NCBI GenBank assembly: GCA_041663425.1 | Contig: JBAYMS010000004.1 | Coordinates: 2,213 to 66,212, forward strand | Direction: 5' to 3' | DNA from: Candidatus Omnitrophota bacterium | GTDB lineage: Bacteria > Omnitrophota > Gorgyraeia > 2-01-FULL-45-10 | DNA: 64,000 nucleotides | Position numbers and translations under genes: made by a program | Shown here: piece by piece, positions 3,167 through 18,387 of the stretch | Position numbering within the stretch: position 1 is the stretch's first letter | Layout of the letters: each line of letters starts with the position of its first letter | The notes under the pieces: generated by a model | Database searches by the model: none | Seen by the model: only the letters and a program-made list of their open reading frames with translations | Told to the model about the DNA's origin: nothing

Positions 3167-4024
3167 ATGCTAAAACAAAAATACGGCCTTATAGGCCACC
3201 CCGTAAAGCATTCGCTTTCGCCGGCCATGCAGAACGCTGCCTTTGGCGCGCTGGGCATTAACGCCGAATATTTTTTGTATGATGTTGAACCGGAAAAACT
3301 GGAAGGGTTCTTAAAAGATGCCCGTTCCGGCAATATATCGGGTTTCAATGTTACCGTTCCCCATAAAATAAAAACAAAAGAATATCTGGAGCGCAAAGGT
3401 TTGCTTGATGAGAACGCCAGACGGCTGGGCGCTGTAAATACGATAAAGATATGTGAGGACGGCAAGCTTTGCGGGTACAATACCGACGGCCCCGGATTTT
3501 ACCGTTCGCTCGTCGAAGATCTGAAGTTTGAGCCTGAAGGCAAAGATATATTTGTCCTGGGGGCTGGCGGAGCGGCGCATGCGGTTATAATGTATCTGGG
3601 TAACGGGCCTAAGAATATATTTGTATTCGATATAGATAAGGCAAAAACCGACGATCTGCAAGAACATTACAAAAGGTATTTTGACGGCAACAGGCTTACG
3701 ATAGTTAACAGTAATAATTTTAAAGATAAACTTAAAATTTCCAGCCTTCTTATAAATACCACTCCTGTGGGAATGAAAGAATCCGACCCGTCGCCCGTGG
3801 ACACATCTTTGCTCCATTACGGGCTTTATGTTTACGATCTTGTATATAATCGTCCTGCAACAGAGCTTGTAAAAAAAGCGACTTCGCTGAAATTGCATGC
3901 CACAACAGGCCTCGGTATGTTGCTTTATCAGGGCGCTATAGCCTTTGAGATATGGACAGGAGCTAAGGCGCCGGTAGCTGTCATGAAGAAGGCCCTTAAA
4001 GAAGCTTTAAAAAATAAGAAATAG
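3167..4024 (+). CDS. aroE: Shikimate 5-dehydrogenase
   Basis: 285 aa; N-terminal YGLIGHPVKHSLSPAMQNAAF and NTDGPGF motifs of AroE. Confidence 0.9.
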   Translation: MLKQKYGLIGHPVKHSLSPAMQNAAFGALGINAEYFLYDVEPEKLEGFLKDARSGNISGFNVTVPHKIKTKEYLERKGLLDENARRLGAVNTIKICEDGKLCGYNTDGPGFYRSLVEDLKFEPEGKDIFVLGAGGAAHAVIMYLGNGPKNIFVFDIDKAKTDDLQEHYKRYFDGNRLTIVNSNNFKDKLKISSLLINTTPVGMKESDPSPVDTSLLHYGLYVYDLVYNRPATELVKKATSLKLHATTGLGMLLYQGAIAFEIWTGAKAPVAVMKKALKEALKNKK

Positions 4025-4904: not shown

Positions 4905-6029
4905 ATGCTCAGATATATGACAAGCGGAGAATCTCACGGCAAATGTGTTCTTGCGATACTGGACGGAATGCCGGCAGGGCTTAAAATAGACGAGGCGTCT
5001 GTAAATAAAGAGCTTTTCAGACGCATGCAGGGTTATGGCCGCGGAGCGCGCATGAAGATCGAAGCTGATAAAGTGGAGATATTGTCCGGTGTGAGGAAAT
5101 CCGTAACTATAGGCAGCCCAATATCTGTAATGATAAAGAACGTGGATCAGTCGATAGATAAGCTTCCGGTCATTCTCGATCCCAGACCAGGGCATGCCGA
5201 CCTTACGGGTGCAATAAAATATAACCTGAATGATGTCAGGAGCGTTCTTGAGCGCGCCAGTGCCAGGGAGACAGTAGCCAGGGTAAGCGTCGGGGCTATC
5301 TGTAAAATATTGTTAGCTGAATTCGGTATCCGTATAACAAGCCATGTGACAGGCATAGGCGATATAACATCTAAGCCGAGTGGATTTAGTTTCGATAAGA
5401 TATTGTCAAGAGCTGAGGCGTCTTCGGTGCGATGTGTCGATCCGGCTGCGTCAGAATTGATGTGCAAAGAGATCGATAAGGCTATGGCTGACGGCGATAC
5501 GCTGGGCGGGACATTTGAGGTTGTGGCTAACGGCGTTCCTCCGGGGCTCGGCACTTATGTTCAGTGGGACAGAAGGCTCGATAGTATGCTTGCCGGTGCG
5601 ATAATGTCTATACAGGCGATAAAAGGAGTCAGCATCGGCGCCGGGTTTGAAGCTGCCGGTATGCGCGGCTCCGCAGTGCATGACGAAATATTTTATTCAA
5701 AAGCTAAAGGATTTTTCAGAAATACAAATCAGGCGGGCGGTATCGAAGGCGGTATGAGTAACGGTGAGGATATTGTAATAACCGCCGCTATGAAGCCTAT
5801 CGCTACGCTTAAAAAACCGCTTTCAAGCATAAATATCAAGACTAAGAAGGCTTTTAAGGCTACGGTAGAGCGTTCGGATGTATGCGCAGTGCCGGCGGCA
5901 GGTGTGGTGGCCGAGAGCGTGGCTGCTGTGGAGATCGCCAATGCGATGATCTTGAAGTTTGGCGGCGATTCGGTCGGTGAGATGCTGCGCAATTATAGTG
6001 AATACTTAAAACAGGTGGCGGAATTTTAA
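4905..6029 (+). CDS. aroC: Chorismate synthase
   Basis: 374 aa; MLRYMTSGESHGKCVLAILDGMPAGL and GRGARMKIE(A) motifs characteristic of AroC. Confidence 0.95.
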   Translation: MLRYMTSGESHGKCVLAILDGMPAGLKIDEASVNKELFRRMQGYGRGARMKIEADKVEILSGVRKSVTIGSPISVMIKNVDQSIDKLPVILDPRPGHADLTGAIKYNLNDVRSVLERASARETVARVSVGAICKILLAEFGIRITSHVTGIGDITSKPSGFSFDKILSRAEASSVRCVDPAASELMCKEIDKAMADGDTLGGTFEVVANGVPPGLGTYVQWDRRLDSMLAGAIMSIQAIKGVSIGAGFEAAGMRGSAVHDEIFYSKAKGFFRNTNQAGGIEGGMSNGEDIVITAAMKPIATLKKPLSSINIKTKKAFKATVERSDVCAVPAAGVVAESVAAVEIANAMILKFGGDSVGEMLRNYSEYLKQVAEF

Positions 6030-6530
6030 ATGAAGAACATAGTCCTTGTCGGATTTATGGGCACTGGAAAGACGACCATAGCTATTCAGCTTGCAAATAA
6101 GCTCGGCATGCGTTATGTTTCGACCGATGACATGATAGAGAAGCGGGAGAAGCGGACTATAAACGAGATCTTCACAAAGAGCGGGGAGGAATATTTCCGT
6201 GATGTGGAGAGCGACGTTGTCCGCGAGATCTCGCAGGCCGAAGGACTGGTAGTAGACGCCGGCGGCGGGGTGGTCATCAGGGAGGAAAACCTGGTCAATC
6301 TTAAATCGAGCGGCATAGTTATCTGTCTTACAGCCGATGAAGATACGATAATGGAGCGGACGAAAAAGTATAAACACAGGCCGCTTCTTAATGTCGAGGA
6401 TCCAAAGCAGAAAATCCGGGCGCTTCTTGCGAAGAGAGCGCCTTTTTATGCTAAGGCTGATCATTTTATAGATACCGGTGAGTTTACAGCCAGGCAGGTT
6501 ATAGAAAAAATTGAGGCTATTGTGAAATGA
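6030..6530 (+). CDS. aroK: Shikimate kinase
   Basis: 166 aa; Walker A GFMGTGKTT; start abuts aroC stop. Confidence 0.9.
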   Translation: MKNIVLVGFMGTGKTTIAIQLANKLGMRYVSTDDMIEKREKRTINEIFTKSGEEYFRDVESDVVREISQAEGLVVDAGGGVVIREENLVNLKSSGIVICLTADEDTIMERTKKYKHRPLLNVEDPKQKIRALLAKRAPFYAKADHFIDTGEFTARQVIEKIEAIVK

Positions 6531-6844
6531 GCAGAAAAGCGCGTTTGTGGACCGGGATGACGCTTATTGTAATATTAGCGTTCAACTATGGTATTTTCGG
6601 TTTTCCTTTGATAAGAAAAGCTCTTTCGCTCAACGATAAAGCGACGACGATACTGATGACGAAGATAAAGACGGGCAATGCCCTCAGAAGTTCGTCAGAA
6701 GAGGAATATATACTTGATATTTTCAGGCGCGAAAAGGAAGCTATCACACGTAAGTTGATAGTCCTTAACGCGGTCAGCCTGACGGTTGTGATCCTGATAG
6801 TAAGCTGGACGATGTTCGGGTTGGTTGTAAATAAGAAGAAATGA
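6527..6844 (+). CDS. Hypothetical small membrane protein (two predicted TM helices)
   Basis: 105 aa; ORF overlaps neighbours by 4 nt on both sides (translational coupling); no recognisable family. Confidence 0.5.
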   Translation: MSRKARLWTGMTLIVILAFNYGIFGFPLIRKALSLNDKATTILMTKIKTGNALRSSSEEEYILDIFRREKEAITRKLIVLNAVSLTVVILIVSWTMFGLVVNKKK

Positions 6845-7758
6845 GAATGGCTATACGGAAGATTACATTAAGTGATGCGGAATATCCGAAGAATTTACGG
6901 AATATGCATACGCCGCCGAAACAATTGTATGTCAATGGCGACTTGCTGGAGCGTGACGAGGTCGCGGTAGCGATCGTCGGCTCACGGCGCGCATCGGTCT
7001 ATGGGCTTGAAACTGCTGAGAAGTTCGGATTTGAGCTTGCCGCGCGGGGAGTGACGGTGGTCAGCGGTATGGCGATCGGTATCGACTCGGCCGCACACAA
7101 AGGTGCGCTCAAAGCCAAAGGCAGGACGATAGCGGTAATGGGCAGCGGGCATAACGTTATCTATCCGCCGCAGAATAAGAAATTGTACGAAGAGATCATA
7201 AGCAGCGGTGCGGTCGTAACGGAATACGACAATGACATGGAAGCGTTGCCGTACCATTTTCCGGCGCGCAATCGTATCATAAGCGGCCTTTCTCTGGGTA
7301 TAGTAGTTGTCGAGGCGGCCAGGAATTCAGGAGCGCTTATTACGGCGAACTTTGCGGCCGAGCAGGGCAGGACGGTGTTTGCGGTTCCGGGCAAAGTTTC
7401 GTCAAGCACTAGCTCAGGCACCAATGAACTTATTAAAGACGGCGCCTGTCTTATTCAGTCAGTCGATGACATATTACAGGAGTTGGCTATCGTGCAGGTC
7501 GGTCAGGTCGGCGGCGAGGTAAAAGAATCGCTGGATAAAAAGATATCGAAACAGACCAGGGCATATATTTATAATTCTCTGACCGATGACGAACGGAAAG
7601 TATATAAAAATTTATCAGATGAGCCGATGTATATAGACGACATTTTAGAAAAAGCAGGCATGGAGCATGCTGCGGTATCGAAAGTGTTGCTTAATTTAGA
7701 ATTGAAGAAGCTGATTTCGCAGCTTCCAGGCAAGCAATTTATACGAAAGGAAAATTAA
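6841..7758 (+). CDS. dprA: DNA processing protein DprA (Smf)
   Basis: 305 aa; Rossmann-like DprA core (VAIVGSRRASVYG, VVSGMAIGIDSAAH) and C-terminal winged-helix region. Confidence 0.9.
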   Translation: MRMAIRKITLSDAEYPKNLRNMHTPPKQLYVNGDLLERDEVAVAIVGSRRASVYGLETAEKFGFELAARGVTVVSGMAIGIDSAAHKGALKAKGRTIAVMGSGHNVIYPPQNKKLYEEIISSGAVVTEYDNDMEALPYHFPARNRIISGLSLGIVVVEAARNSGALITANFAAEQGRTVFAVPGKVSSSTSSGTNELIKDGACLIQSVDDILQELAIVQVGQVGGEVKESLDKKISKQTRAYIYNSLTDDERKVYKNLSDEPMYIDDILEKAGMEHAAVSKVLLNLELKKLISQLPGKQFIRKEN

Positions 7759-9785
7759 TGGCCAAAAACCTGGTAATAGTAGAGTCTCCCGCTAAAGCGA
7801 AGACGATAAATAAATTTCTCGGATCAAGCTACAAAGTTGTCGCCAGTATGGGGCATATTATAGACCTGCCCAAATCGAAGCTCGGGGTAGACGTTGAGAA
7901 TGACTTTGCGCCTAAGTACATAGTTATGACGGACAGGAAAAAAAATATGGCTGCGCTAAAAAAAGACGCCAAGTCCAAAACTACCATCTATCTCGCAGCC
8001 GACCCTGATCGTGAAGGCGAAGCTATAAGCTGGCATCTGAAGAATGTGCTGGGCAGCGAAGATAAGAAATGTTACAGGGTCGAGTTCGACGAAATAACCA
8101 AAGATGCCGTATTGAATGCGTTTAAGCACCCCCGCGATATAAACATGAACCTCGTTAATGCCCAGCAGGCAAGGCGGATACTCGACAGGCTTGTCGGATA
8201 TTCCATAAGCCCTATCCTTTGGAAAAAGGTAGCTAGGGGGCTTTCGGCCGGCCGCGTCCAATCTGTTGCGCTTCGCCTGATAGTTGAGCGTGAAAGCGAG
8301 ATAAAGAAATTTAACCCTCAGGAATATTGGAGTCTCGAGGCTGAGCTTAAGCGTAAAGCGGATCAGCCGAAGGATAAATTTATCGCCAAGCTTTATAAAT
8401 ATAAAGGCGTGGATGCAGATATAAAACACAAGCAGGATGCCGACAAAGCTCTGGAGCAGCTTAAGAAGGAGACTTTTATAGTCAGCGATCTGCGGGAGAC
8501 CAAGAAAAAAAGAAATCCATATCCGCCGTTTACCACATCAAAGCTTCAGCAGGAGTCGTTTAATAAACTGAAATTCTCGGGTGCGAGAACGATGCATATC
8601 GCCCAGACTTTATATGAAGGCGTCGAAATAGGGGACGAAGGGTCTGTCGGTCTTATAACTTACATGAGAACCGATTCAGTGAAAATTTCCAAAGATGCTC
8701 AGGCGGCGGCTAAAGAGTATGTCGTGAATACTTACGGTAACAAATATTATCCGGAGACGCCGAATGCTTATAAATCTAGAAAATCGGCTCAGGAAGCGCA
8801 CGAAGCCATAAGGCCGACACTTCCTTTGAGGAGTCCTGAATCTGTAAGAGATACGCTTACGCACGATCAGTTTAAACTTTATCAGCTCGTATGGAACAGG
8901 TTTATCGCCAGCCAGATGACACCGGCTGTCTTTTCGCAGGTCACTGTTGATATTAACGCCGGCGATTATCTTTTTAAGGCCAGCGATACAAAGGTGGTGT
9001 TTGACGGCTATACGGCTGTTTATGAGGTAGAGAAAGAGAAAGAGGATGATGAGGACGAAAAGACCAAACTGCCGGAGCTTTCCGTCGGGCTGCCGCTCGA
9101 TCTTCTGAACCTCATTCCCGATCAGCACTTTACTAAACCGCCGCCGAGATATTCAGATGCGAGCCTTGTAAAGATACTTGAAGAGCTCGGCATCGGCAGG
9201 CCGTCGACATATGCGCCTATTATACAGACCATTACGGCGAGGGATTATGTCAGGCGTGAGTCCGGGTATTTCCATCCGACTGAACTGGGCACAATAGTGG
9301 TTGAGCTCTTAATGAAGCATTTCACCAAGATCCTTGATGTTGAATTTACAGCTAGAATGGAAAATGAACTCGATGGCATAGAAGAGGGCGAAGCGGACTG
9401 GGTTACGGTTCTCAAAGCATTCTATTCGCCGTTCATACATTCTGTCGAGGCGGCAAAGCTTGAGATGAAGGATGTTAAAAAAGAAATAGGCGCAACGGAC
9501 CAGATATGCGAGCTTTGCGGAAAGCCTATGGTTATAAAGTGGGGCAGGCGCGGGAAGTTTTTGAGTTGTTCCGACTATCCGACCTGCAAGAACGCAAAAT
9601 CGATATCTTCAGGCGTAAAATGTCCTAATGGCTGCGGCGGAGAGCTGGTCCAGAGACGTTCTTTCCGCGGCACCTTTTACGGCTGTACGAAATACCCCGC
9701 ATGCACATTTACTTCCAAAAAACTTCCGGGGACTGAAGACAAAGAAGCCGATGATGCCAAGAAGGATGGGGAATCAGCCGCTTGA
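7758..9785 (+). CDS. topA: DNA topoisomerase I
   Basis: 675 aa; TOPRIM N-terminus (LVIVESPAKAKTI), catalytic domain, and C-terminal Cys4 zinc-ribbon repeats. Confidence 0.95.
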   Translation: MAKNLVIVESPAKAKTINKFLGSSYKVVASMGHIIDLPKSKLGVDVENDFAPKYIVMTDRKKNMAALKKDAKSKTTIYLAADPDREGEAISWHLKNVLGSEDKKCYRVEFDEITKDAVLNAFKHPRDINMNLVNAQQARRILDRLVGYSISPILWKKVARGLSAGRVQSVALRLIVERESEIKKFNPQEYWSLEAELKRKADQPKDKFIAKLYKYKGVDADIKHKQDADKALEQLKKETFIVSDLRETKKKRNPYPPFTTSKLQQESFNKLKFSGARTMHIAQTLYEGVEIGDEGSVGLITYMRTDSVKISKDAQAAAKEYVVNTYGNKYYPETPNAYKSRKSAQEAHEAIRPTLPLRSPESVRDTLTHDQFKLYQLVWNRFIASQMTPAVFSQVTVDINAGDYLFKASDTKVVFDGYTAVYEVEKEKEDDEDEKTKLPELSVGLPLDLLNLIPDQHFTKPPPRYSDASLVKILEELGIGRPSTYAPIIQTITARDYVRRESGYFHPTELGTIVVELLMKHFTKILDVEFTARMENELDGIEEGEADWVTVLKAFYSPFIHSVEAAKLEMKDVKKEIGATDQICELCGKPMVIKWGRRGKFLSCSDYPTCKNAKSISSGVKCPNGCGGELVQRRSFRGTFYGCTKYPACTFTSKKLPGTEDKEADDAKKDGESAA

Positions 9786-10663
9786 TGCAGAGGTTTGTAG
9801 AAAAATTTATAAATTACCTTAAGGTTGAAAAGAATTCTTCGGCGCATACAATAACAAATTATTCTGTGGACCTCAAAGCGTTTGAAGAATTTTTAGGCGA
9901 CAAGGACGTTTCCGCCATAGACCACCTGCTGCTCAGAAAGTTTCTTGCCGATATGCGCGCGAAGGACTATTCGAAAAGGACCGTTGCGCGCAAACTTGCA
10001 AGCTTGCGGAGTTTCTTTAAGTTTATGTATCGCGAAGGGCACATAAAGACCAACCCTATTTCCGCGATATCTACGCCCAAGCTTGATCATAAATTGCCGG
10101 TTGTCCTGGACGAAGGGCAGATAGCAAAGCTGCTCCAGTGCCCTCCCGAGGATGATGTATTCGGGCTAAGGGACAGGGCTATGCTTGAGACGATCTACTC
10201 CGCCGGGATCCGCGTAAGCGAGCTGGTGGGCTTGAATATCAGCAACGTTGACCTGATCGGTGAGGTCATTAAGGTATTCGGTAAAGGTTCTAAGGAGCGG
10301 ATGGTGCCGATAGGCCGTCCGGCAGCTACAGCGCTTCGGAGATATCTCGATAGGCGCGATGAGCTGGGTGTTAAGGATAAAGACAAGAATGCGGTGTTCC
10401 TTGGTAAAAATGGGACGCGTTTGTGGGACAGAAGTGTCCGCCGCATACTTGATAAGCATATAAAGTCATGCGCCGTTGTGGAGCATATTTCGCCGCATAG
10501 CCTGAGGCATTCGTTTGCGACACACATGCTTGATCATGGGGCGGATCTGCGCAGCGTCCAGGAACTTCTGGGCCATGCGAATCTGTCGACAACGCAGATA
10601 TACACGCATGTGACGATGGATCGCCTGAAAGCGGTGTATGACAAAGCGCATCCACGGGCATAA
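9782..10663 (+). CDS. xerC: Site-specific tyrosine recombinase XerC/XerD family
   Basis: 293 aa; phage-integrase catalytic signature (R...HSLRHSFATHMLD...LGHANLSTTQIYTHV); conserved dprA-topA-xerC synteny. Confidence 0.9.
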   Translation: MMQRFVEKFINYLKVEKNSSAHTITNYSVDLKAFEEFLGDKDVSAIDHLLLRKFLADMRAKDYSKRTVARKLASLRSFFKFMYREGHIKTNPISAISTPKLDHKLPVVLDEGQIAKLLQCPPEDDVFGLRDRAMLETIYSAGIRVSELVGLNISNVDLIGEVIKVFGKGSKERMVPIGRPAATALRRYLDRRDELGVKDKDKNAVFLGKNGTRLWDRSVRRILDKHIKSCAVVEHISPHSLRHSFATHMLDHGADLRSVQELLGHANLSTTQIYTHVTMDRLKAVYDKAHPRA

Positions 10664-10703
10664 AGTTTTTGACACGGTAGAATGTGCTGTGTCAAAGTGG
10701 TTC

Positions 10704-10789
10704 GCTTCGGACGCGTAATTTTCAACCATGTGAAAATTACGCTCGGGAAAAATTGCTCGGACGCTGCCTCGCAATTTTTACGCCGAAGC
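10704..10789. repeat. Copy A of a roughly 85-nt structured palindromic element (closing stem GCTTCGG/CCGAAGC + hairpin 10713-10742 + hairpin 10748-10779); inverted homolog of 11901-11983
   Basis: Hand alignment to the reverse complement of 11901-11983 shows about 80% identity over ~68 nt including a near-identical 14-nt loop TCGGACGCTGCCTC, with compensatory differences in all three stems. Confidence 0.6.
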
Positions 10790-10884
10790 TCACCACTTCG
10801 CCACATCACATTCATGGTGAGCGAAAAGGTTTACTGGAATTACGGTTGCCCTGGGACACGTTCAATATCAAAACCGGGGATAGC

Positions 10885-10914
10885 TTGAAGGTTGCAGATT
10901 GTACCAGGTACAAT
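10885..10914 (+). promoter_or_regulatory. Sigma70-like promoter (TTGAAG-N18-TACAAT) overlapping a 17-bp perfect palindrome ATTGTACC-A-GGTACAAT (10898-10914)
   Basis: Hexamers and palindrome read directly; located 30 nt upstream of orphan ORF start at 10946 (RBS aagg at 10935). Confidence 0.45.
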
Positions 10915-10945
10915 ATATAGTCTTAGATAATATAAGGTTTATATT

Positions 10946-11764
10946 ATGAATAATAAGAAACCATTTGCTAACTGGGTCGTGGATGAATGGGACGCCTTTA
11001 TCGAAGTATGGCGGAATAGACGTATGCTAGCAATTATTGTATTAGTAATAATTGTAGGGATAGTGGCATACTGGATTATAGATAAGGGGGCTATGGTTAG
11101 GATAATTAGTGATCTTAAAGCGCAGGTTGCTAAGATTCAGACAGAAAATAAAGAGCTTGCCGTAGAGAAGAATTTGCTTCGCATTGAAAATACTAGCTTA
11201 AAAGAAACTGTTGCACCCCTTCTTAAGCAAGCCGCCAAGGAATTTCCAGGAGAAGAAATTAATGAGTCGTTAAAAAAAATAGTTACTAGACTGAACGCAG
11301 TCGCACCGCTTAGTCAACCAATACGAGTGGCTACCGCAGCCATTGAAGTACGGATCAAGTCCGAAGAGAGTTTAAATAGTCATTTTATGGATCGGGGTGC
11401 TTATATTGCATTTGCTAAAGAAGGATCTGGTTTTGCTTTTGGAACACAAAAGGAAATATTCGTGATTATGAAATCTTTAGATTGTTTTGCTAATCAATTG
11501 GGAGAAGGGGAGGTTGCATATAAAGCACTCTGTAATATGGATGTTGGTAAGGGCATTACTGAAAAGCCCATCTCCCATCTTAATGACGCTAATTATATTG
11601 AAGTAGGATTTTCGCCGATGTTAAAAAAAAGTGATGTAGATGTAACGGGAGGGTCTATTGTTTGTACATTTAATAGTCTGGTTCGTGCAGAATTAAATAT
11701 TCCTCCACAGAAAATGTCTAATGGTGTAATTGTAATTCGCGATGCTAAAATATCTTTAAAGTAG
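10946..11764 (+). CDS. Hypothetical membrane-anchored coiled-coil protein (orphan, AT-rich, likely horizontally acquired)
   Basis: 272 aa; short cytoplasmic N-term, one TM helix (LAIIVLVIIVGIVAYWII), ~80-aa heptad/coiled-coil segment, ~150-aa C-terminal globular domain with no family I recognise; codon usage visibly more A/T-rich than neighbours. Confidence 0.6.
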   Translation: MNNKKPFANWVVDEWDAFIEVWRNRRMLAIIVLVIIVGIVAYWIIDKGAMVRIISDLKAQVAKIQTENKELAVEKNLLRIENTSLKETVAPLLKQAAKEFPGEEINESLKKIVTRLNAVAPLSQPIRVATAAIEVRIKSEESLNSHFMDRGAYIAFAKEGSGFAFGTQKEIFVIMKSLDCFANQLGEGEVAYKALCNMDVGKGITEKPISHLNDANYIEVGFSPMLKKSDVDVTGGSIVCTFNSLVRAELNIPPQKMSNGVIVIRDAKISLK

Positions 11765-11900
11765 TTGTTGGAAATTTAGCTCTGGAATTAGTGCATAGTT
11801 GAATGCTCGAGAGGGCTGTGTTTACGCGACGATGTGCGCCAGATTGAGCGAGGAAATTTTTCGACTCTGTAGTAGAAATTCCCGCAGGGATTTGTGACGA

Positions 11901-11983
11901 GCGGGGCGTTAAAATTTCGAGGCAGCGTACGAGAAATTTTACAGAGCAAATTTTTTACATGGCTGAAAAATTTGCGTCCCCGC
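11901..11983. repeat. Copy B (inverted) of the ~85-nt structured element; closing stem GCGGGG/CCCCGC, hairpin 11946-11975, second hairpin 11909-11940
   Basis: Reverse complement aligns with 10704-10789; flanked by short mutually inverted hairpins 11875-11896 and 11988-12009. Confidence 0.6.
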
Positions 11984-12035
11984 GAGGCACAATCCCGGAA
12001 GGGAATTCCTCGAGGGATGAAAATTTAGGAGTGAG

Positions 12036-13304
12036 ATGCTTTACGACATAGGATTTTTCATATTTTCACTGTTCTACTTGCCGACTTTGATATTCAAGGG
12101 CAAGCTGCATGGTGACTTTGGCGAAAGGTTCGGCTTTTACGGCAGGGAGAAGCGCGCGGCGCTTGCGCAGGCCAAGGGCGCGATATGGATACAGGCGGTG
12201 AGTGTCGGAGAAGTTGCGCTCTGCAGGAGCCTTGTTCCGATGATGCGCGAAAAGTTTCCGCAGCATCCGATAGTCTTTTCGACGATAACAAAGACAGGTA
12301 ATGAGCTTGCCAGGAAATTGTTTTCCAAAGATGCGGTGATCATATATTTCCCGCTCGACTTTTCGTTCGTTGTTAAAAAAGTGATCCGCATGATAAAACC
12401 GAAGATGTATGTTATGGTAGAGACGGAGATATGGCCCAACTTTCTTAAGACGATAGAACGCAATACGATCCCTGCCATTCTTATAAACGGAAGGATCTCG
12501 GATAAGTCCTTCGGGAAATATGAGATGGCGAGGCCGTTCCTTCAGAAGATAATAAAGAATATGAACTCTCTGTGCATGCAGTCGAAGACCGATGCGGACA
12601 GGATAATAAAGATGGGCGCTGCCGCTGAAAAAGTAAAAGTCACCGGCAACATGAAGTTCGACGTTCCGGCCAAGCCCATCCAGTCCTCAGGCGATGAGCT
12701 CAAGAAACAGCTTGGGCTCGAGGAGGGCGATGAGCTTCTTGTGGCGGGATCGACGCATCCGGGCGAGGAAGAGGCGGTTATTGATGCGTATCAGGATATT
12801 GTTAAAAAGATCCCCGGCCTTAAACTTCTGATAGCTCCGCGCCACATCGATCGCGCGGATGAGGTTGCGGAAGTCGCCAGGGGCTGCGGATTTAATCCTG
12901 TTAAATTGTCTGTCCTGCAGTCGGATGCCTCTAATTCCCAGATTTTCATATTGGATACAATAGGCCGCCTGAACGATTTCTATTCGATCGCATCGGCCGT
13001 ATTTGTTGGCGGCAGCCTTATACCGCACGGCGGACAGAACCCGATAGAGCCCGCTATTTATGGTAAGCCCGTGATATTCGGGCCGTATATGTTCAATTTT
13101 AAAGGTATCGCCGAAGCGTTTCTCAGCAAAGATGCGGCAATACGGGTTGATGCTGCAGGTGACCTGACTGCCGTCCTTTATAATATGCTGGCGAATAAAA
13201 ATAGACAGGCGGAGGTCGGCTTGCGCGCCAAAGAGGTTATTGCCGCAAATAGGGGTGCCACAGAAAACGTATTGAATGAAATGGGCAGGTTCCTGAATGC
13301 GTAA
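12036..13304 (+). CDS. waaA: 3-deoxy-D-manno-octulosonic acid (Kdo) transferase
   Basis: 422 aa; N-terminal membrane anchor, GT30 N-domain (IWIQAVSVGEV) and C-terminal GT-B domain; followed by lpxK. Confidence 0.9.
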   Translation: MLYDIGFFIFSLFYLPTLIFKGKLHGDFGERFGFYGREKRAALAQAKGAIWIQAVSVGEVALCRSLVPMMREKFPQHPIVFSTITKTGNELARKLFSKDAVIIYFPLDFSFVVKKVIRMIKPKMYVMVETEIWPNFLKTIERNTIPAILINGRISDKSFGKYEMARPFLQKIIKNMNSLCMQSKTDADRIIKMGAAAEKVKVTGNMKFDVPAKPIQSSGDELKKQLGLEEGDELLVAGSTHPGEEEAVIDAYQDIVKKIPGLKLLIAPRHIDRADEVAEVARGCGFNPVKLSVLQSDASNSQIFILDTIGRLNDFYSIASAVFVGGSLIPHGGQNPIEPAIYGKPVIFGPYMFNFKGIAEAFLSKDAAIRVDAAGDLTAVLYNMLANKNRQAEVGLRAKEVIAANRGATENVLNEMGRFLNA

Positions 13305-14334
13305 TTTTATTTATTCGCTCATGACCGATAAACGCAAAGGCGCGTTTTATTCTATTTTGAAATTTATACTTTATGCCGTTTCTCTCGCTTATGGAGCGGC
13401 TATCCTGGTCAGGCGGCTTTTTTATACTGTCGGGATATTTAAGTCCGAAAAGGTCCCTCTGAAAATTATATCAGTAGGAAATCTCACCCTGGGGGGTACG
13501 GGGAAGACGCCTTTCGTCATATGGCTTGTCGATATGCTGGATGAAGAGTTTGATAAAAAGGCGAGCGTTCTTATCCGCGGTTATGGCTGGGACGAGCAGA
13601 CGATGCTTAAACGAAAACTTCCTGACACACCTATCATGGTCGGCGAGGATAGGGCAAGGTCAGCTCACAAAGCGATAAAATTATATGGAAGCGACACAGC
13701 GGTGCTGGACGACGGTTTTCAGCACTGGGAGCTATCGCGCAATATCGATATAGTGCTGATAGATTCCCGCAACCCTTTTGGTAATGGATTTCTGTTTCCG
13801 CGCGGCGTTCTTAGGGAGACCAAGGAGGCGCTCAAGCGGGCATCGGTTGTTGTGTTTACGAAGACGGATAAAAAAAATGCAGAACTTGACAATGTAAAGA
13901 GAGAGATTAAAAATATAAACGATAATATTGTATTCCTGGAAGCGGTCCACAGGCCTTTTTATGTAAATGACCTAAAAGGCCGTAAAGACCGCCCTCTGGA
14001 ATTTTTGAAAGGGAAAAGGGTCGTCCTTCTTTCGAGCATAGGAGATCCGGGTTATTTTGCCGATACGGTCCGCTCTCTGGGGGCGGATATAGCAGAGCAT
14101 ATAATATTTGCAGATCATCATAATTACAAAGAGTCGGACGCGGAACTCATAGTGAAGCGCTGCAATGAGCGGAAGTTTGATTTTATTTTAACTACGGAAA
14201 AGGATGAAGTTAAATTGCGCAGGATGTCGCTGTCGTTTGCGGGTTATCCCGTAATGACGCTTGCTATAAAGATGGACATTCTTTCAGGGAAGGAGCTTTT
14301 AGTTGATAGATTACGCAGCTTATATACTCGTTAA
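13297..14334 (+). CDS. lpxK: Tetraacyldisaccharide 4'-kinase
   Basis: 345 aa; P-loop VGNLTLGGTGKTP characteristic of LpxK; overlaps waaA stop by 8 nt. Confidence 0.9.
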   Translation: MRNFIYSLMTDKRKGAFYSILKFILYAVSLAYGAAILVRRLFYTVGIFKSEKVPLKIISVGNLTLGGTGKTPFVIWLVDMLDEEFDKKASVLIRGYGWDEQTMLKRKLPDTPIMVGEDRARSAHKAIKLYGSDTAVLDDGFQHWELSRNIDIVLIDSRNPFGNGFLFPRGVLRETKEALKRASVVVFTKTDKKNAELDNVKREIKNINDNIVFLEAVHRPFYVNDLKGRKDRPLEFLKGKRVVLLSSIGDPGYFADTVRSLGADIAEHIIFADHHNYKESDAELIVKRCNERKFDFILTTEKDEVKLRRMSLSFAGYPVMTLAIKMDILSGKELLVDRLRSLYTR

Positions 14335-16249
14335 GGCGCTGAATAAAATATTCAGCATTGTGCCTATAAGCGTATCTTTGTGGCTGGGCAGGCGCATAGG
14401 CGACTTTGCTTTTTTTGTCAATAAAAAGCGGAGGCTCGTGGCGTATGCCAATCTGAAATCCGCGTTCGCATCTGAAAAGACACCTGCGGAATTACGGCAG
14501 ATCACCAAGAGAATTTACCGGAATATGGTCCAGACTTTTGTCGAGCTGCTCAACCTGACAAAGATAAACCGGAAGTATGTAGATAAATACGTCGAAGTCG
14601 TGAATATGGAACGCATACGGAATGCCGCGAAATCCGGCAGGGGGACGGTGCTTCTGACTGCCCATTTCGGCGACTGGGAACTGTCGAGCCTGGTGAGTTC
14701 AGTGGAAGGGTTTCCGATACTGGTCCTTGCCAGGGAGCAGAAGATGAAGCGGCTGAATGAGCTGCTGAACCAGCTTCGTGAATCCAACGGCTGCAAAGTT
14801 ATCAGGAAAGGGATGGACGTCCGGAATATACTTAAGGCGCTGCGCGGTAAAAATATTGTAGGCGTGCTGTCGGATCAGGATGCTGGTAAAAAAGGCATGT
14901 TCGTTGATTTTTTCGGCAGGCCGACATCCTGTCATTCCGGACCTTTCGAAATAGCAAAACATACAGATTCGCTGATATTGCCTAATTTTATAGTCCGCAC
15001 AGGCGGGCCATATCATAAGCTTTATCTTGAAGAATATATTGATTTCCGTAATACGAATAGTCCCGATGATATAAAAGAGAACCTGCAGAAGTTTGCGAAG
15101 CTTCTCGAAAGCTATGTCCGGAAGTATCCCGATCAGTGGCTATGGCTTCACAAGAGATGGAAATCTACTCCTGTCAGGACGACGCTCGTCCTGAATGACG
15201 GAAAGGCCGGTCATCTGAACCAGTCTCTGGCTGTCGCAAAAGAGCTTCGCAGGGCGCGCATGACGCAGGGCTTTAAAGCGGAAGATACAAATATAGTAGT
15301 AGTTGATGTAAAGTATAAGAGCAAATTTTCCAGGGCGATACTTACGGCCGCCTCGCTTTTTGCAGGCTGGCGCTGTCACGGCCGGATGGGTATTATGAAA
15401 TTCTGTCTCGAAGAAAACACGTATGAAACTTTAATGAAGACGTATTCGGAGTTCGTAATATCGTGCGGATCCGCAACTACGCCTGTAAATATTTTCATGT
15501 CAAAAGAGAACAACGCGAAAAATATAACTATAATGACGCCTATGCTTGCGCCATTTACCATGCGTAAATTTAAACTTGCTATAATTCCGCGCCATGATCA
15601 TCCCGCCCGGACAAAGAATGTGGTCGTGACCGAGATCGCCCCTAACCTGGTGGATGCGGACAGGATGAAACGTGATGCAGCCAGTCTTAAAGAACAGATA
15701 GGCGGCGGCGTCGGAGATTCTGTAGCGTTATTTATCGGCGGTGACAATCCGGAATTCTCGATGGCCAGAGATATTGTCAATTCAGCCATAGAGGGGGTAA
15801 CAGAATTTTGTGATCGCTCCGGAGCGTCTATTTTTGCAACGACATCAAGAAGGACATCGCCTGAGATCGAAGGTATTCTGAAGAACAGGCTGCAGAATTA
15901 TCCGAAATGTAAGTTCCTCGTGATAGCTAACGAAAAGAACTTTGATTTTACGGTAAGCGGTATGCTTGCGTCATGTAAGGTTGCAGTGGTCTCGGAGGAA
16001 TCGATATCTATGGTCTCGGAGGCCATCTCTGCAGGCAGGAAAGTTATTGTATTCCGCCTGTCGAAAAAGAATGACGCTGTGACTAAACATGAACGTGCGC
16101 TTAAGACGCTTGCCGATCAGGGGTATATTGCTATTGTTGAAGCGTCAGGGCTGGTCGCAGCGCTTGAGAAAGCCTGGAATGATAAAACGGCCGTAAAGCC
16201 GCCTGAAGATATGGACCGTATCTTCGAGGCGCTTAAAAGGTTGATTTAA
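14303..16249 (+). CDS. lpxL: Fusion protein: lipid A biosynthesis (Kdo2-lipid IVA) acyltransferase LpxL/HtrB family (N-term ~290 aa) + ELM1/DUF1022-like putative GT-B domain (C-term ~350 aa)
   Basis: 648 aa; N-domain has the Lip_A_acyltrans hallmarks (LTAHFGDWEL, ...YPDQWLWLHKRWK); C-domain begins VLNDGKAGHLNQSLAVAKEL resembling bacterial Mito_fiss_Elm1 (PF06258) proteins; TTG start, overlaps lpxK 3' end by 32 nt. Confidence 0.7.
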   Translation: MIDYAAYILVKALNKIFSIVPISVSLWLGRRIGDFAFFVNKKRRLVAYANLKSAFASEKTPAELRQITKRIYRNMVQTFVELLNLTKINRKYVDKYVEVVNMERIRNAAKSGRGTVLLTAHFGDWELSSLVSSVEGFPILVLAREQKMKRLNELLNQLRESNGCKVIRKGMDVRNILKALRGKNIVGVLSDQDAGKKGMFVDFFGRPTSCHSGPFEIAKHTDSLILPNFIVRTGGPYHKLYLEEYIDFRNTNSPDDIKENLQKFAKLLESYVRKYPDQWLWLHKRWKSTPVRTTLVLNDGKAGHLNQSLAVAKELRRARMTQGFKAEDTNIVVVDVKYKSKFSRAILTAASLFAGWRCHGRMGIMKFCLEENTYETLMKTYSEFVISCGSATTPVNIFMSKENNAKNITIMTPMLAPFTMRKFKLAIIPRHDHPARTKNVVVTEIAPNLVDADRMKRDAASLKEQIGGGVGDSVALFIGGDNPEFSMARDIVNSAIEGVTEFCDRSGASIFATTSRRTSPEIEGILKNRLQNYPKCKFLVIANEKNFDFTVSGMLASCKVAVVSEESISMVSEAISAGRKVIVFRLSKKNDAVTKHERALKTLADQGYIAIVEASGLVAALEKAWNDKTAVKPPEDMDRIFEALKRLI

Positions 16250-16254
16250 ACTAA

Positions 16255-18387
16255 ATGAATATACTGCAGATATTACCATCGCTGGATGTGGGAGGGGTTG
16301 AGACCGGGACGGTTGACCTGGCGAAATATCTTGTCGCCCATGGACACAAGGCCATAACGGTTTCAAGCGGCGGCCGTCTTGTAAGGGAACTCGACTCGAT
16401 AGGCGCGCGTCATTATAATCTGCCCGTAGGTAAAAAGTCTCTCATATCGATCATACAAATGATAAAAGAGCTGCGCGAGATAATCCGCAAAGAGGATATC
16501 GATGTAGTTCATGCGCGTTCCCGCGTGCCTGCGCTTATAGCCTATTTTGCCTGCAAATCATCCGGCAGGGCATTTATCACTACCGCTCACGGGTATTATA
16601 AGAAACACATGATGAGCGAGGCTATGGGCTGGGGTAAATACGTTATAGTTGCTTCTAATGTGATGGCCAAGCACATGATGAATAATTTTAAAGTCCCGTA
16701 TGACAGGATACGGCTTATCCCCCGCGGCGTGGACCTTGAAAGATTTACATTCAGAGATCCATCTTCCCGCCGGTCAGAATGGTTTGTTGTGGGGATGGTA
16801 TCGAGGATAACGCCTCTTAAAGGTCATGCCGATTTTGTCAGGGCCATATCCATATTAAGCCGCCAGATCCCAAACCTGAAAGCCGTCATAGTCGGCAGTG
16901 CACCGAAGGCAAAATATAAAGAGGATATCGAGCTTTTGATAAGAAGGCTGGGCCTTTCCAATATGATCGAGTTTCTTCCGGCTACGCATGATGTGCCGAA
17001 TATAATGCGCGGACTGGACGTGCTCGTATCTGCCACTACCACACCGGAAGCTTTCGGCAGGGTCATCATAGAGGCTCAGGCATCGGGCGTTCCGGTAGTT
17101 GCTACGCAGGTAGGCGGGGTAGTAGACATTATAGACGACAGGAAGACGGGGCTTCTGTGCCATCCTCAGAACCCGAAAGAGATGGCCGAAAAGATCCTGG
17201 AATTGCATAAAGATAAGGGGTTGTGGACGAGCCTTGCGGTTGAATCCAAAAAAAACGTGGAGACTTATTTCAATTTAAATAAGATGATGAATAGGACGAT
17301 CGCTGTCTACGAAGAAGCGATTGAAACTTTGAATATACTTGTAATAAAGATAAGTGCGATCGGTGATGTGATATTGAGCGTTCCCTCTCTTAAAGCGATA
17401 CGTGAAAAATATCCTAAGGCAAACATAAAGGTCCTGGTCGGTGTCCAGGCTCGGGAAGTGCTCGACAGGTGCCCGTATATCAATGACAGGATAGTCTGTG
17501 ATTTTAAGGGAAAGCATCACGGGCTGTTAGGCCTGTGGCGGCTTGGAGAAGAATTGCGCGCGTCGTGTTTTGACATAGTGATAGACCTCCAGAATTCCAA
17601 GAAGAGCCATATCCTTGCAGCGCTGAGTTTTGCACCCCTTAGATACGGATACGACAATAGGAAATTATCATTCCTGCTTAACAAGAGATTGAGAGACGAC
17701 GCTCCGCATCTTGACCCTGTAGAGCATCAGTTCAGGACGCTCAGAATGGCGGGCATAAAGCCTCAGGATAAATGTCTGGCACTTTGGCCGTCAGGTGCCG
17801 AGGAAAAACAGGTTGAGAAACTTTTAACCGACGGTTGGATGAAACCTACCACGGAGCTTGTCGGTATAAACGTCAGGGCGTCTGCCAGGTGGGTTACAAA
17901 GAACTGGCCGATAGCGAATATCGCCGAGCTGTGTGACAGGCTTGCCAGGGAATTTAATGTCAGGGTTGTTCTGACCGGCGCTGAAGAGGATGCGGGATTT
18001 GCCCAGGCGATAGCAAAGATGAGCAAATCTAAACCTCTGAACGCTGCAGGGAAGACCAGCGTCCTCGAGCTTGCCGCCCTGATCAGCCGTTTCAAAGTTT
18101 ATTTAACACCCGATTCCGCGCCCATGCATATAGCTACGGCGGTCGGGACTCCATGCATCGCATTATTTGGGCCTACGGATCCGGCGCGCCATGCGGTTCC
18201 GGTTAAGACGTGCATAGTGATCAGCAAAAAAGATGAATTGAAATGCAGTCCGTGCTACAGCCCCACTTGTGTAAAAAATTTCATGTGTATGAAAAAGATA
18301 TCGGTGGAAGAAGTCCTTGAGGCCATGCGGCCATATCTTAAAGAAGAGGCGAGAGTTGAAAGTACTGCAGATAACAACGCACATTAA
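16255..18387 (+). CDS. Fusion glycosyltransferase: GT4 (N-term ~350 aa) + GT9 ADP-heptose:LPS heptosyltransferase-like domain (C-term from ~17335)
   Basis: 710 aa; N-domain GT4 features (E...G.PVVAT..GG motif VIIEAQASGVPVVATQVGG); C-domain ILVIKISAIGDVILSVPSL...DSAPMHIATAVGTPCIALFGPTDP typical of WaaC/WaaF family; C-terminal Cys4 motif. Confidence 0.8.
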   Translation: MNILQILPSLDVGGVETGTVDLAKYLVAHGHKAITVSSGGRLVRELDSIGARHYNLPVGKKSLISIIQMIKELREIIRKEDIDVVHARSRVPALIAYFACKSSGRAFITTAHGYYKKHMMSEAMGWGKYVIVASNVMAKHMMNNFKVPYDRIRLIPRGVDLERFTFRDPSSRRSEWFVVGMVSRITPLKGHADFVRAISILSRQIPNLKAVIVGSAPKAKYKEDIELLIRRLGLSNMIEFLPATHDVPNIMRGLDVLVSATTTPEAFGRVIIEAQASGVPVVATQVGGVVDIIDDRKTGLLCHPQNPKEMAEKILELHKDKGLWTSLAVESKKNVETYFNLNKMMNRTIAVYEEAIETLNILVIKISAIGDVILSVPSLKAIREKYPKANIKVLVGVQAREVLDRCPYINDRIVCDFKGKHHGLLGLWRLGEELRASCFDIVIDLQNSKKSHILAALSFAPLRYGYDNRKLSFLLNKRLRDDAPHLDPVEHQFRTLRMAGIKPQDKCLALWPSGAEEKQVEKLLTDGWMKPTTELVGINVRASARWVTKNWPIANIAELCDRLAREFNVRVVLTGAEEDAGFAQAIAKMSKSKPLNAAGKTSVLELAALISRFKVYLTPDSAPMHIATAVGTPCIALFGPTDPARHAVPVKTCIVISKKDELKCSPCYSPTCVKNFMCMKKISVEEVLEAMRPYLKEEARVESTADNNAH

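Follow-up and report, generated by a model that had tools for sequence, protein, structure and literature searches.

The Correia elements of Neisseria (CREE, or NEMIS) have been discussed as recombination hotspots, and the minimal mobile elements (MMEs) of the same bacteria are said to facilitate the horizontal exchange of gene cassettes (PMC2649163). Repetitive extragenic palindromes (REPs) are described as 20–40 nt long with a GTAG or CGTC head (PMC3733652). Here, we analyzed a locus of Candidatus Omnitrophota that shares traits with all three: the stretch 10664–12035 between xerC and waaA in a 64,000-nt window of contig JBAYMS010000004.1 (all positions refer to this window unless a locus number precedes them). 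It contains a single gene for a 272-aa protein (the cargo) between two inverted copies, A and B, of a repeat that we named E. The two copies differ in subtype and are independent members of a family of DNA repeats that is found across the lineage and built as nested palindromes. The window lies on a 69.6-kb MAG contig listed in ENA as ERZ27247350 k141_2000989. The original prediction had read the stretch as a non-autonomous mobile cassette, flanked either by miniature inverted-repeat transposable elements (MITEs) or by the sites of an integrative mobile element exploiting Xer (IMEX). We consider it probable, with the reservations given below, that it is a filled hotspot of horizontal gene transfer (HGT) marked by the repeat family and not a self-contained mobile cassette.

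The xerC-waaA junction is a hypervariable slot that holds unrelated, mostly low-GC accessory genes, or nothing. Orthologous junctions were fetched via the WaaA and XerC relatives of the window, and eight could be compared: six were read through, of which one was empty and five differed in their cargo, and two were interrupted by contig breaks. The window carries E in its canonical orientation, E(+), followed by the 272-aa gene and a reversed copy, E(-). The junction in L061 (XerC identity 78%) was empty, with a 57-nt spacer and neither E nor cargo, and L060 (XerC 83%) had a serpin gene with a G+C content of 0.43, also without E. In three relatives E(+) was followed by other genes: LOR, DUF3800 and TPR genes in L059 (XerC 84%), an HNH nuclease in L057 (XerC 81%), and an NYN nuclease plus a 234-aa membrane protein in L056 (XerC 80%). 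The contig of L055 (WaaA 78%) begins inside E(+), after which a 231-aa gene, an HTH gene and a Fic gene were found. The closest relative (XerC 92%, WaaA 86%) was sampled in several runs; its contigs end inside E(+) (L058) and start inside a degenerate E(-) (L051–L054), and the cargo was not seen. E(+) was present after xerC in five relatives, L055–L059, and E(-) was absent from L055–L057 and L059–L061, the degenerate remnant of the 86%-WaaA relative lying at the position of copy B. The AAAATTT leader of waaA was intact as GTAAAAATTTAGGAG in L056 and L057. The cargo-waaA spacers of these two loci (L056:4527–5000; L057:4694–5000) contained other G+C-rich palindromes, such as GGTGCGCA(C)AAGGCC..., which are not E.

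The 272-aa gene is a foreign insertion. Its foreign origin had been predicted, and neither the gene nor its flanks were shared by all relatives; the junction was polymorphic in both presence and content. The closest sampled relative probably lacks the gene, because no protein more than 45% identical was detected in a collection of 5.8 billion proteins. The slot was similar to the MMEs in that the xerC and waaA flanks hold different cassettes or nothing and in that the cassettes carry no mobility genes. Unlike the MMEs, it has a dispersed repeat at one fixed edge, and repeat pairs recur around cargo; exchange by transformation and homologous recombination is presumed here.

The composition of the cargo gene agreed with a foreign source. 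Among the 61 open reading frames (ORFs) of at least 100 aa in the window, the cargo ORF (10946–11764, + strand) had the lowest G+C content (0.376 compared with a mean of 0.455; z -3.4) and the lowest G+C at third codon positions (GC3; 0.290 compared with a mean of 0.480; z -3.9), and its synonymous-codon log-likelihood was the second lowest. An AT-rich ORF with deviant codon usage had been proposed by eye, and the calculation bore this out. The proposed anatomy was also correct, with spacers of 282 nt on the xerC side and 271 nt on the waaA side of the ORF. These were the third and fifth longest gaps in the ORF list, and two other long gaps were artefacts of the crude ORF caller. Gene-free gaps that seemed to extend for 1 kb beside some E copies were discarded as artefacts of the same caller; one of them was fmt in L024. 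No direct repeats of at least 18 nt were found within 10300–12400.

The genes on both sides were conserved. The left border of the slot is xerC (9782–10663, + strand), which encodes a housekeeping tyrosine recombinase and follows topA (7758–9785) in the order dprA-topA-xerC. The right border is waaA (12036–13304, + strand), encoding the Kdo transferase (PF04413, 9.7e-61). It is followed by lpxK and then by an lpxL-ELM1 fusion, an order kept in all relatives. The fusion gene of the window (14303–16249) encodes 648 aa, with a lipid A acyltransferase domain (PF03279) and an ELM1/mitochondrial-fission-like domain (PF06258), and was conserved in all relatives examined.

Copy A occupies 10661–10837 on the + strand, in canonical orientation and with a type-1 outer stem (core 10674–10811; covariance model 146.6 bits, E-value 3e-50). 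Its head, TAAAGTTTTTGAC, overlaps the stop codon of xerC, and its tail is AGCGAAAAGGTTTACTGG. The unique part of the left spacer (10838–10945) had no similarity to the other fetched loci; it includes an A+T-rich leader of the cargo and contains a sigma-70-like site, TTGAAG-18-TACAAT at 10885–10914, as a consensus match only. On the other side, the unique part of the right spacer (11765–11851) resembled other sequences only in an E flank motif; the spacers of the window were unique among the fetched loci. Copy B follows at 11852–12026 on the - strand, inverted and with a type-2 outer stem (core 11879–12013; 128.9 bits, E-value 8e-44). Its tail (GGAAATTTTTCG on the + strand) points to the cargo, and its head (TGAAAATTT) abuts the ribosome-binding site of waaA.

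The inverted copies of a structured element that had been noticed in the two spacers persisted under blastn as a match of 76 nt at 80% identity between 10709–10784 and 11905–11979 (E-value 2e-13 within the window). Each arm sits in a larger Y-shaped fold consisting of an outer stem and two hairpins. The folding free energy was -60/-66 kcal/mol for copy A (z -7.5/-8.5 against shuffled sequence) and -50/-40 kcal/mol for copy B (z -4.2/-2.5). As one is of type 1 and the other of type 2, the copies are not duplicates of each other. Neither blastn nor the covariance model found a third copy within the 64 kb; the model detected only A (+) and B (-).

E belongs to a family that extends well beyond this window. 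The search with the conserved core TCGKACGCTGCCTCGMAATTTT returned 42 exact matches in 40 loci of species-representative genomes, compared with an estimated handful expected by chance. All of them were in six metagenome-assembled genomes (MAGs) of Candidatus Omnitrophota, three of which had 8–13 matches each. A further 62 loci were found in the JGI metagenome collection, and no match to the core pattern was found in a viral contig collection. The covariance model (A3, R1), built from 32 copies, identified about 50 copies in the genome-locus set and about 60 in the metagenome set. The original prediction had proposed looking for the element genome-wide; in total more than 100 copies were found, all in Candidatus Omnitrophota MAGs or in metagenome contigs. 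Their sequences were 80–90% identical across genomes. Short ORFs of 66–80 aa cross many of the copies (for example, 10682–10888 in the window, L012:2551–2793 and L057:3838–4038) with similar translations, such as ...REIFSHVKISL...; they are most likely by-products of repeat conservation and not genes, and could be mis-annotated.

Omnitrophota assemblies break systematically at E, precisely where the junctions vary. Across several assemblers and samples, contigs start or end inside it (L051–L054 and L055 at their starts, L058 at its end, and L066, L077, L079, L083, L085, L112, L116 and L121), and many copies lie at contig ends, as would be expected of a repeat that interrupts assembly. The Logan contig L002 (10609–11927 of the window) was considered as a further such break, but only its right end lies inside copy B, and it was not used.

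The core of E is about 135 nt long, and the element measures about 175 nt with its termini AAAATTTTTCG...CGAAAAATTTT. The head reads (T)AAAATTTTTCG and the tail CGAAAAATTTT(AC). The core comprises hairpin 1, GCGAAATTTTCA-ACCATG-TGAAAATTTCGC, and hairpin 2, AAAATTTCTCG-TACGCTGC-CTCGAAATTTT, with the conserved loops CCATG and ACGCTGCC. The outer stem is modular, with two interchangeable types that can nest: type 1, GAATGTGCTGTGTCGAGTGG...CCACATCGCCACATCACATTC, and type 2, GGAATTCCC..GGGATTGTGCC...GGCACGAATCCC..GGGAATTCC. Nearly all copies had outer stems of 20–30 nt and the inverted AAAATTTTTCG/CGAAAAATTTT termini, which constitute terminal inverted repeats. The pairing is clearly under selection: 96.9% of the pair cells were paired, compared with 84.4% in shuffles and 27–48% with slid partners, and 25 of 38 pairs had changed on both sides where 13.3 were expected.

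Strong covariation and very stable folds are also what a structured RNA would display. In 69 of 83 cases E ran in the same direction as the gene upstream, and it usually began at a fixed distance of 10–25 nt after the stop codon. These features would fit an E that acts mainly as an RNA module (a stabiliser of 3' untranslated regions, a processing site or a terminator) and adjoins foreign genes because both share the few long intergenic regions. However, functional RNA normally tolerates many G-U pairs. Of the 1212 pair cells, 1170 were Watson-Crick, 4 were G-U, 13 were A-C (that is, G-U on the other strand) and 25 were other mismatches, so that G-U was no commoner than the other mismatches. 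E was also found within operons (ilvC-E-leuA in L044), and copy B lies 22 nt upstream of the waaA start; it is therefore not an efficient terminator. At the orthologous priA-fmt junction, L024 had a single reversed type-2 copy (1838–2003) and L031 had two canonical copies (6042–6796), and orientation is thus not fixed at orthologous sites. No Rfam 15 model matched either strand of 9500–13000 at an E-value of 1 or below, and the RNA function does not predict the asymmetry in low-GC genes, about 17 on the tail side and none on the head side, described below. We therefore regard an RNA module as unlikely.

Insertion polymorphism was observed at a second junction, between the lpxL-ELM1 fusion and a glycosyltransferase gene, where E was present in L056 (9220–9693) and L057 (9220–9508) and absent from the window (16249–16255) and L055. 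The filled sites carried another 120–300 nt of unrelated sequence after E. The compensatory pairing, the near absence of G-U pairs, the positions in operons, the switch of orientation and the insertion polymorphism together fit a DNA repeat, and we infer for these reasons that E is a non-autonomous MITE/REP-like element that would insert at A/T-rich sites of the AAATTT type beside stop and start codons. The ends of E are themselves palindromic (AAATTT), so that a target-site duplication (TSD) is indistinguishable from the inverted repeat, and the available empty and filled sites were too diverged.

The closest analogue of E appears to be the Correia element. Like CREE/NEMIS, ERIC, RUP and BOX, E is 100–180 nt long, non-coding, multi-copy and restricted to one lineage. 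Like CREE in particular, it consists of a directional core between terminal inverted repeats, adjoins gene starts and ends, can form long hairpins and is polymorphic for insertion between relatives. It differs from CREE in its three-way architecture, with the modular, nestable outer stem and two inner hairpins, and its sequence is unrelated. A TA duplication is a CREE trait, and in E it would be masked by the palindromic ends. E likewise shows the traits of MITEs: it is short, non-coding and multi-copy, with terminal inverted repeats and presence or absence at orthologous sites. It also resembles REP/BIME and the RAYT-mobilised REPIN sequences as an extragenic palindrome that forms inverted doublets, accumulates compensatory changes in its hairpins and lies just downstream of genes. 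However, its core is longer than a REP (about 135 nt) and internally branched, and a GTAG at its 5' edge is inconsistent.

E has a clear polarity, with its head toward a native gene and its tail toward intergenic space and cargo. The head-side gene was co-directional with E in 33 of 42 cases in one locus set and in 36 of 41 in a second, independent one; it usually stopped 10–25 nt short of the core, and the TAA that ends it often merged with the head motif. Genes with a G+C content below 0.40 numbered about 17 on the tail side and 0 on the head side. Each of the nine sizeable low-GC islands in genome loci with E abutted a copy, and 60% of low-GC windows were located within 600 nt of E, compared with a baseline of 22%, in loci found through E. 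The tail-side cargo included AbiGi (PADLOC 2e-52; L023), NYN, HNH, HTH with Fic, a RelE-like pair, an FkbM methyltransferase, and small membrane or secreted proteins. A second hotspot with the order dnaK-E(+)-cargo-dnaJ differed in its low-GC cargo between two genomes, one with a 458-aa orphan and the other with a 330-aa membrane protein, the FkbM methyltransferase and the RelE-like pair (L014:1584–3283; L047:4112–7705). We know of no description of such a strict head-to-native, tail-to-cargo rule for CREE.

Here, the following course of events is proposed for the xerC-waaA slot. Copy A would be a long-standing resident after xerC, and in the lineage of the window copy B would have inserted into the AAAATTT leader that precedes waaA. 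Homologous recombination in the conserved flanks, namely xerC with E on one side and waaA on the other, would replace the slot contents in blocks, by analogy with the MMEs of Neisseria. The tails of E may have been favoured for the first capture of foreign DNA, as a tightly packed genome offers few permissive intergenic sites. A more speculative alternative is fragility or recombinogenicity of the tails, or of the centre of a tail-to-tail pair, which forms a palindrome exceeding 300 nt; this would invite illegitimate first capture.

Several points weigh against the hotspot reading as a whole. The exchange by homologous recombination was inferred and not observed, the locus set was ascertained through E, no TSD for E was resolved, and no transposase was identified, none having been sought. 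In addition, three independent tail-to-tail pairs, E(+)..E(-), each enclose one low-GC gene: the pairs in the window, in L012 and in L108, where the gene encodes a TPR protein (G+C 0.39). Two tail-to-tail pairs are gene-free, L110:4074–4387 with 42 nt between the arms and L067:1–418 with 186 nt. Such regularity exceeds what plain permissive sites would predict and hints that E takes part in cargo capture. The only other close pair was in tandem (L031), and head-to-head pairs numbered 0.

The gene-free pairs resemble an empty state of the layout that encloses cargo elsewhere. This resemblance could be taken further, to the proposal that the E copies are the working sites of a gene-capture system directed by hairpin DNA, in which single-gene cassettes integrate at the tail; we rate this as a long shot. 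With the same low probability, the tail-to-tail pairs would then be platforms in their empty (L110, L067) and filled (window, L012, L108) states. Such a system might be served by the housekeeping XerCD, by a structure-specific nuclease together with repair, or by another enzyme.

The same pairs could also represent a composite transposon mobilised in trans, in which E(+)-cargo-E(-) moves as a unit and a transposase encoded elsewhere acts on the outward heads. The three cargo-bearing and two gene-free pairs with heads always outward, the terminal inverted AAAATTTTTCG/CGAAAAATTTT motifs and the insertion polymorphism are consistent with such a unit. However, of the five relatives with E(+) after xerC, four had other cargo and no E(-), and the contig of the fifth ends inside E(+). 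The arms of each pair differ in subtype, those of the window being type 1 and type 2 at 80% identity. No cargo recurred at a second E site in the fetched loci (914 kb), E did not accompany the cargo homologues of other phyla, and, as noted, neither a TSD nor a transposase supports transposition of the unit, although no transposase was sought. A composite transposon is accordingly rather improbable. The original prediction was upheld in part: the foreign insertion and the MITE-like flanks stood, but the repeats are not the ends of a cassette, as their subtypes are dispersed and copy A is retained with other cargo, and nothing shows movement of the whole as a mobile unit.

The adjacent tyrosine recombinase gene suggested another mechanism, an IMEX or pdif-module-like element in which XerC and XerD recombine within E and thereby insert or invert the cargo. 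The candidate site would be the 12-6-12 palindrome GCGTAATTTTCA-ACCATG-TGAAAATTACGC, as the arms and spacer of hairpin 1 are arranged like those of a tyrosine-recombinase core site. pdif modules are bounded by inverted sites. In L012 (1626–3871, SO_2017_LW4_139), a gene for an XerD equivalog is followed by E(+) (2579–2715), a 248-aa orphan gene that matched no family (G+C 0.31) and E(-) (3685–3818), the same layout as after xerC in the window. However, both XerC and XerD are housekeeping equivalogs; XerC scored 360.6 bits with TIGR02224 (cut-off 335). The dprA-topA-xerC synteny persisted even at the empty junction without E in L061. E also follows dnaK, ilvC, priA, lpxL-ELM1, xerD and dozens of other genes, and in L034 (fen_1322) ispE comes immediately after xerD-E, without intervening cargo. 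Variation in the hairpin arms is compensatory, a pattern that speaks for base pairing rather than a fixed protein-binding sequence. No flanking direct repeats were present, E had no resemblance to the dif consensus in a comparison by eye, and a chromosome with ten or more sites competent for recombination would be at risk. We consider both the Xer mechanism and its candidate site highly improbable; the Xer link is coincidental, and the IMEX-like part of the original prediction was not upheld.

The likeness to known Xer and integron systems is confined to general features. With the pdif modules of Acinetobacter plasmids and with IMEX, the locus shares a small module of one or a few genes, inverted recombinase-type sites and the vicinity of Xer genes; it differs in that E is chromosomal and lies at many loci unrelated to Xer, that the direct dif repeats of IMEX are absent, and that no dif-like sequence was seen by eye. 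Like integron cassettes, it comprises a single promoter-poor gene beside structured imperfect palindromes of 60–140 nt and a tyrosine-recombinase gene. Unlike in integrons, the recombinase is an XerC equivalog, the E sequence is highly conserved (attC is not), the copies are inverted and not direct, and there is no cassette array. An integron cassette was rejected: the integron-integrase (IntI) models reached 136 and 87 bits on XerC, far below their cut-offs of 265 and 435, and the E copies are inverted and conserved in sequence.

The 272-aa protein had been described as a transmembrane (TM) helix, a coiled coil and a C-terminal domain, and the AlphaFold2 (AF2) model (predicted local distance difference test 81.8) agreed. 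A positive-inside N-terminus, WRNRR, precedes the TM helix at about residues 27–45. The continuous helix and coiled coil extend to about residue 118 and carry the near-invariant motif EN..L.ETVAPLL..AAKEFPGEEIN.SLKK. A beta-sandwich follows at about residues 125–265; in the AF2 model it gave weak matches to the fold of PLAT/LH2, the eight-stranded sandwich domain of lipoxygenases and lipases. The protein is thus predicted to be anchored in the inner membrane with its N-terminus inside, and to present outside the cytoplasm a coiled-coil stalk tipped by a possibly lipid-binding beta-sandwich with a weak PLAT likeness.

Eighteen homologues were found at 30–45% identity, in scattered taxa and neighbourhoods, and the profile search gave 453 cluster representatives at an E-value of 1e-3 or below. 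The C-terminal domain occurred behind many different N-termini; ten larger proteins that share it gave one DUF6236 match and were otherwise uninformative in Pfam. The cargo itself matched no Pfam or NCBIfam family and no PADLOC defence model at an E-value of 1 or below. Matches to PHROGs were weak and of the coiled-coil type, the best being an Rz-like spanin (E-value 0.019), and the PDB sequence profile search returned generic coiled coils only. No homologues were found in IMG/VR, among INPHARED phages or among PLSDB plasmids, and the homologues in other phyla were not surrounded by inverted repeats. In the soil contig L003, a 40%-identical homologue lies between direct repeats of about 70 nt (5814–5882 and 7009–7079; 81–90% identical). 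These repeats resemble a duplicated 3' end of a gene with its terminator and may be an independent insertion signature of the gene family.

The original prediction had also compared the protein with defence or abortive-infection effectors. The neighbouring slots do hold AbiGi, NYN, HNH and Fic genes, and the protein itself matched none of the defence or family models. A role at the envelope, whether accessory, in exclusion or in defence, is a guess from this context to which we would give at most a modest chance.

Omnitrophota are uncultivated and have tightly packed genomes, and little is known about the route by which accessory and defence genes reach them. The results showed that foreign genes enter recurrently at a housekeeping junction, xerC-waaA, and that such points of entry are marked, with strict polarity, by a palindromic repeat specific to the lineage. 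Both components of the locus, an HGT hotspot flanked by core genes and a repeat family of the MITE/REP-like type, are of known kinds. E itself, as a family, and its cargo polarity appear to be undescribed; no description of E and no paper linking Omnitrophica with MITEs were found in the literature. As assemblies break inside it, E can be used to locate variable islands in Omnitrophota MAGs. If E plays no part in capture, it is another MITE/REP-like family beside an ordinary hotspot. If it does take part, it would represent a new mechanism for the acquisition of small cassettes, and a dedicated capture system, if true, would mean that a streamlined candidate phylum has a cassette system akin to integrons or pdif modules.

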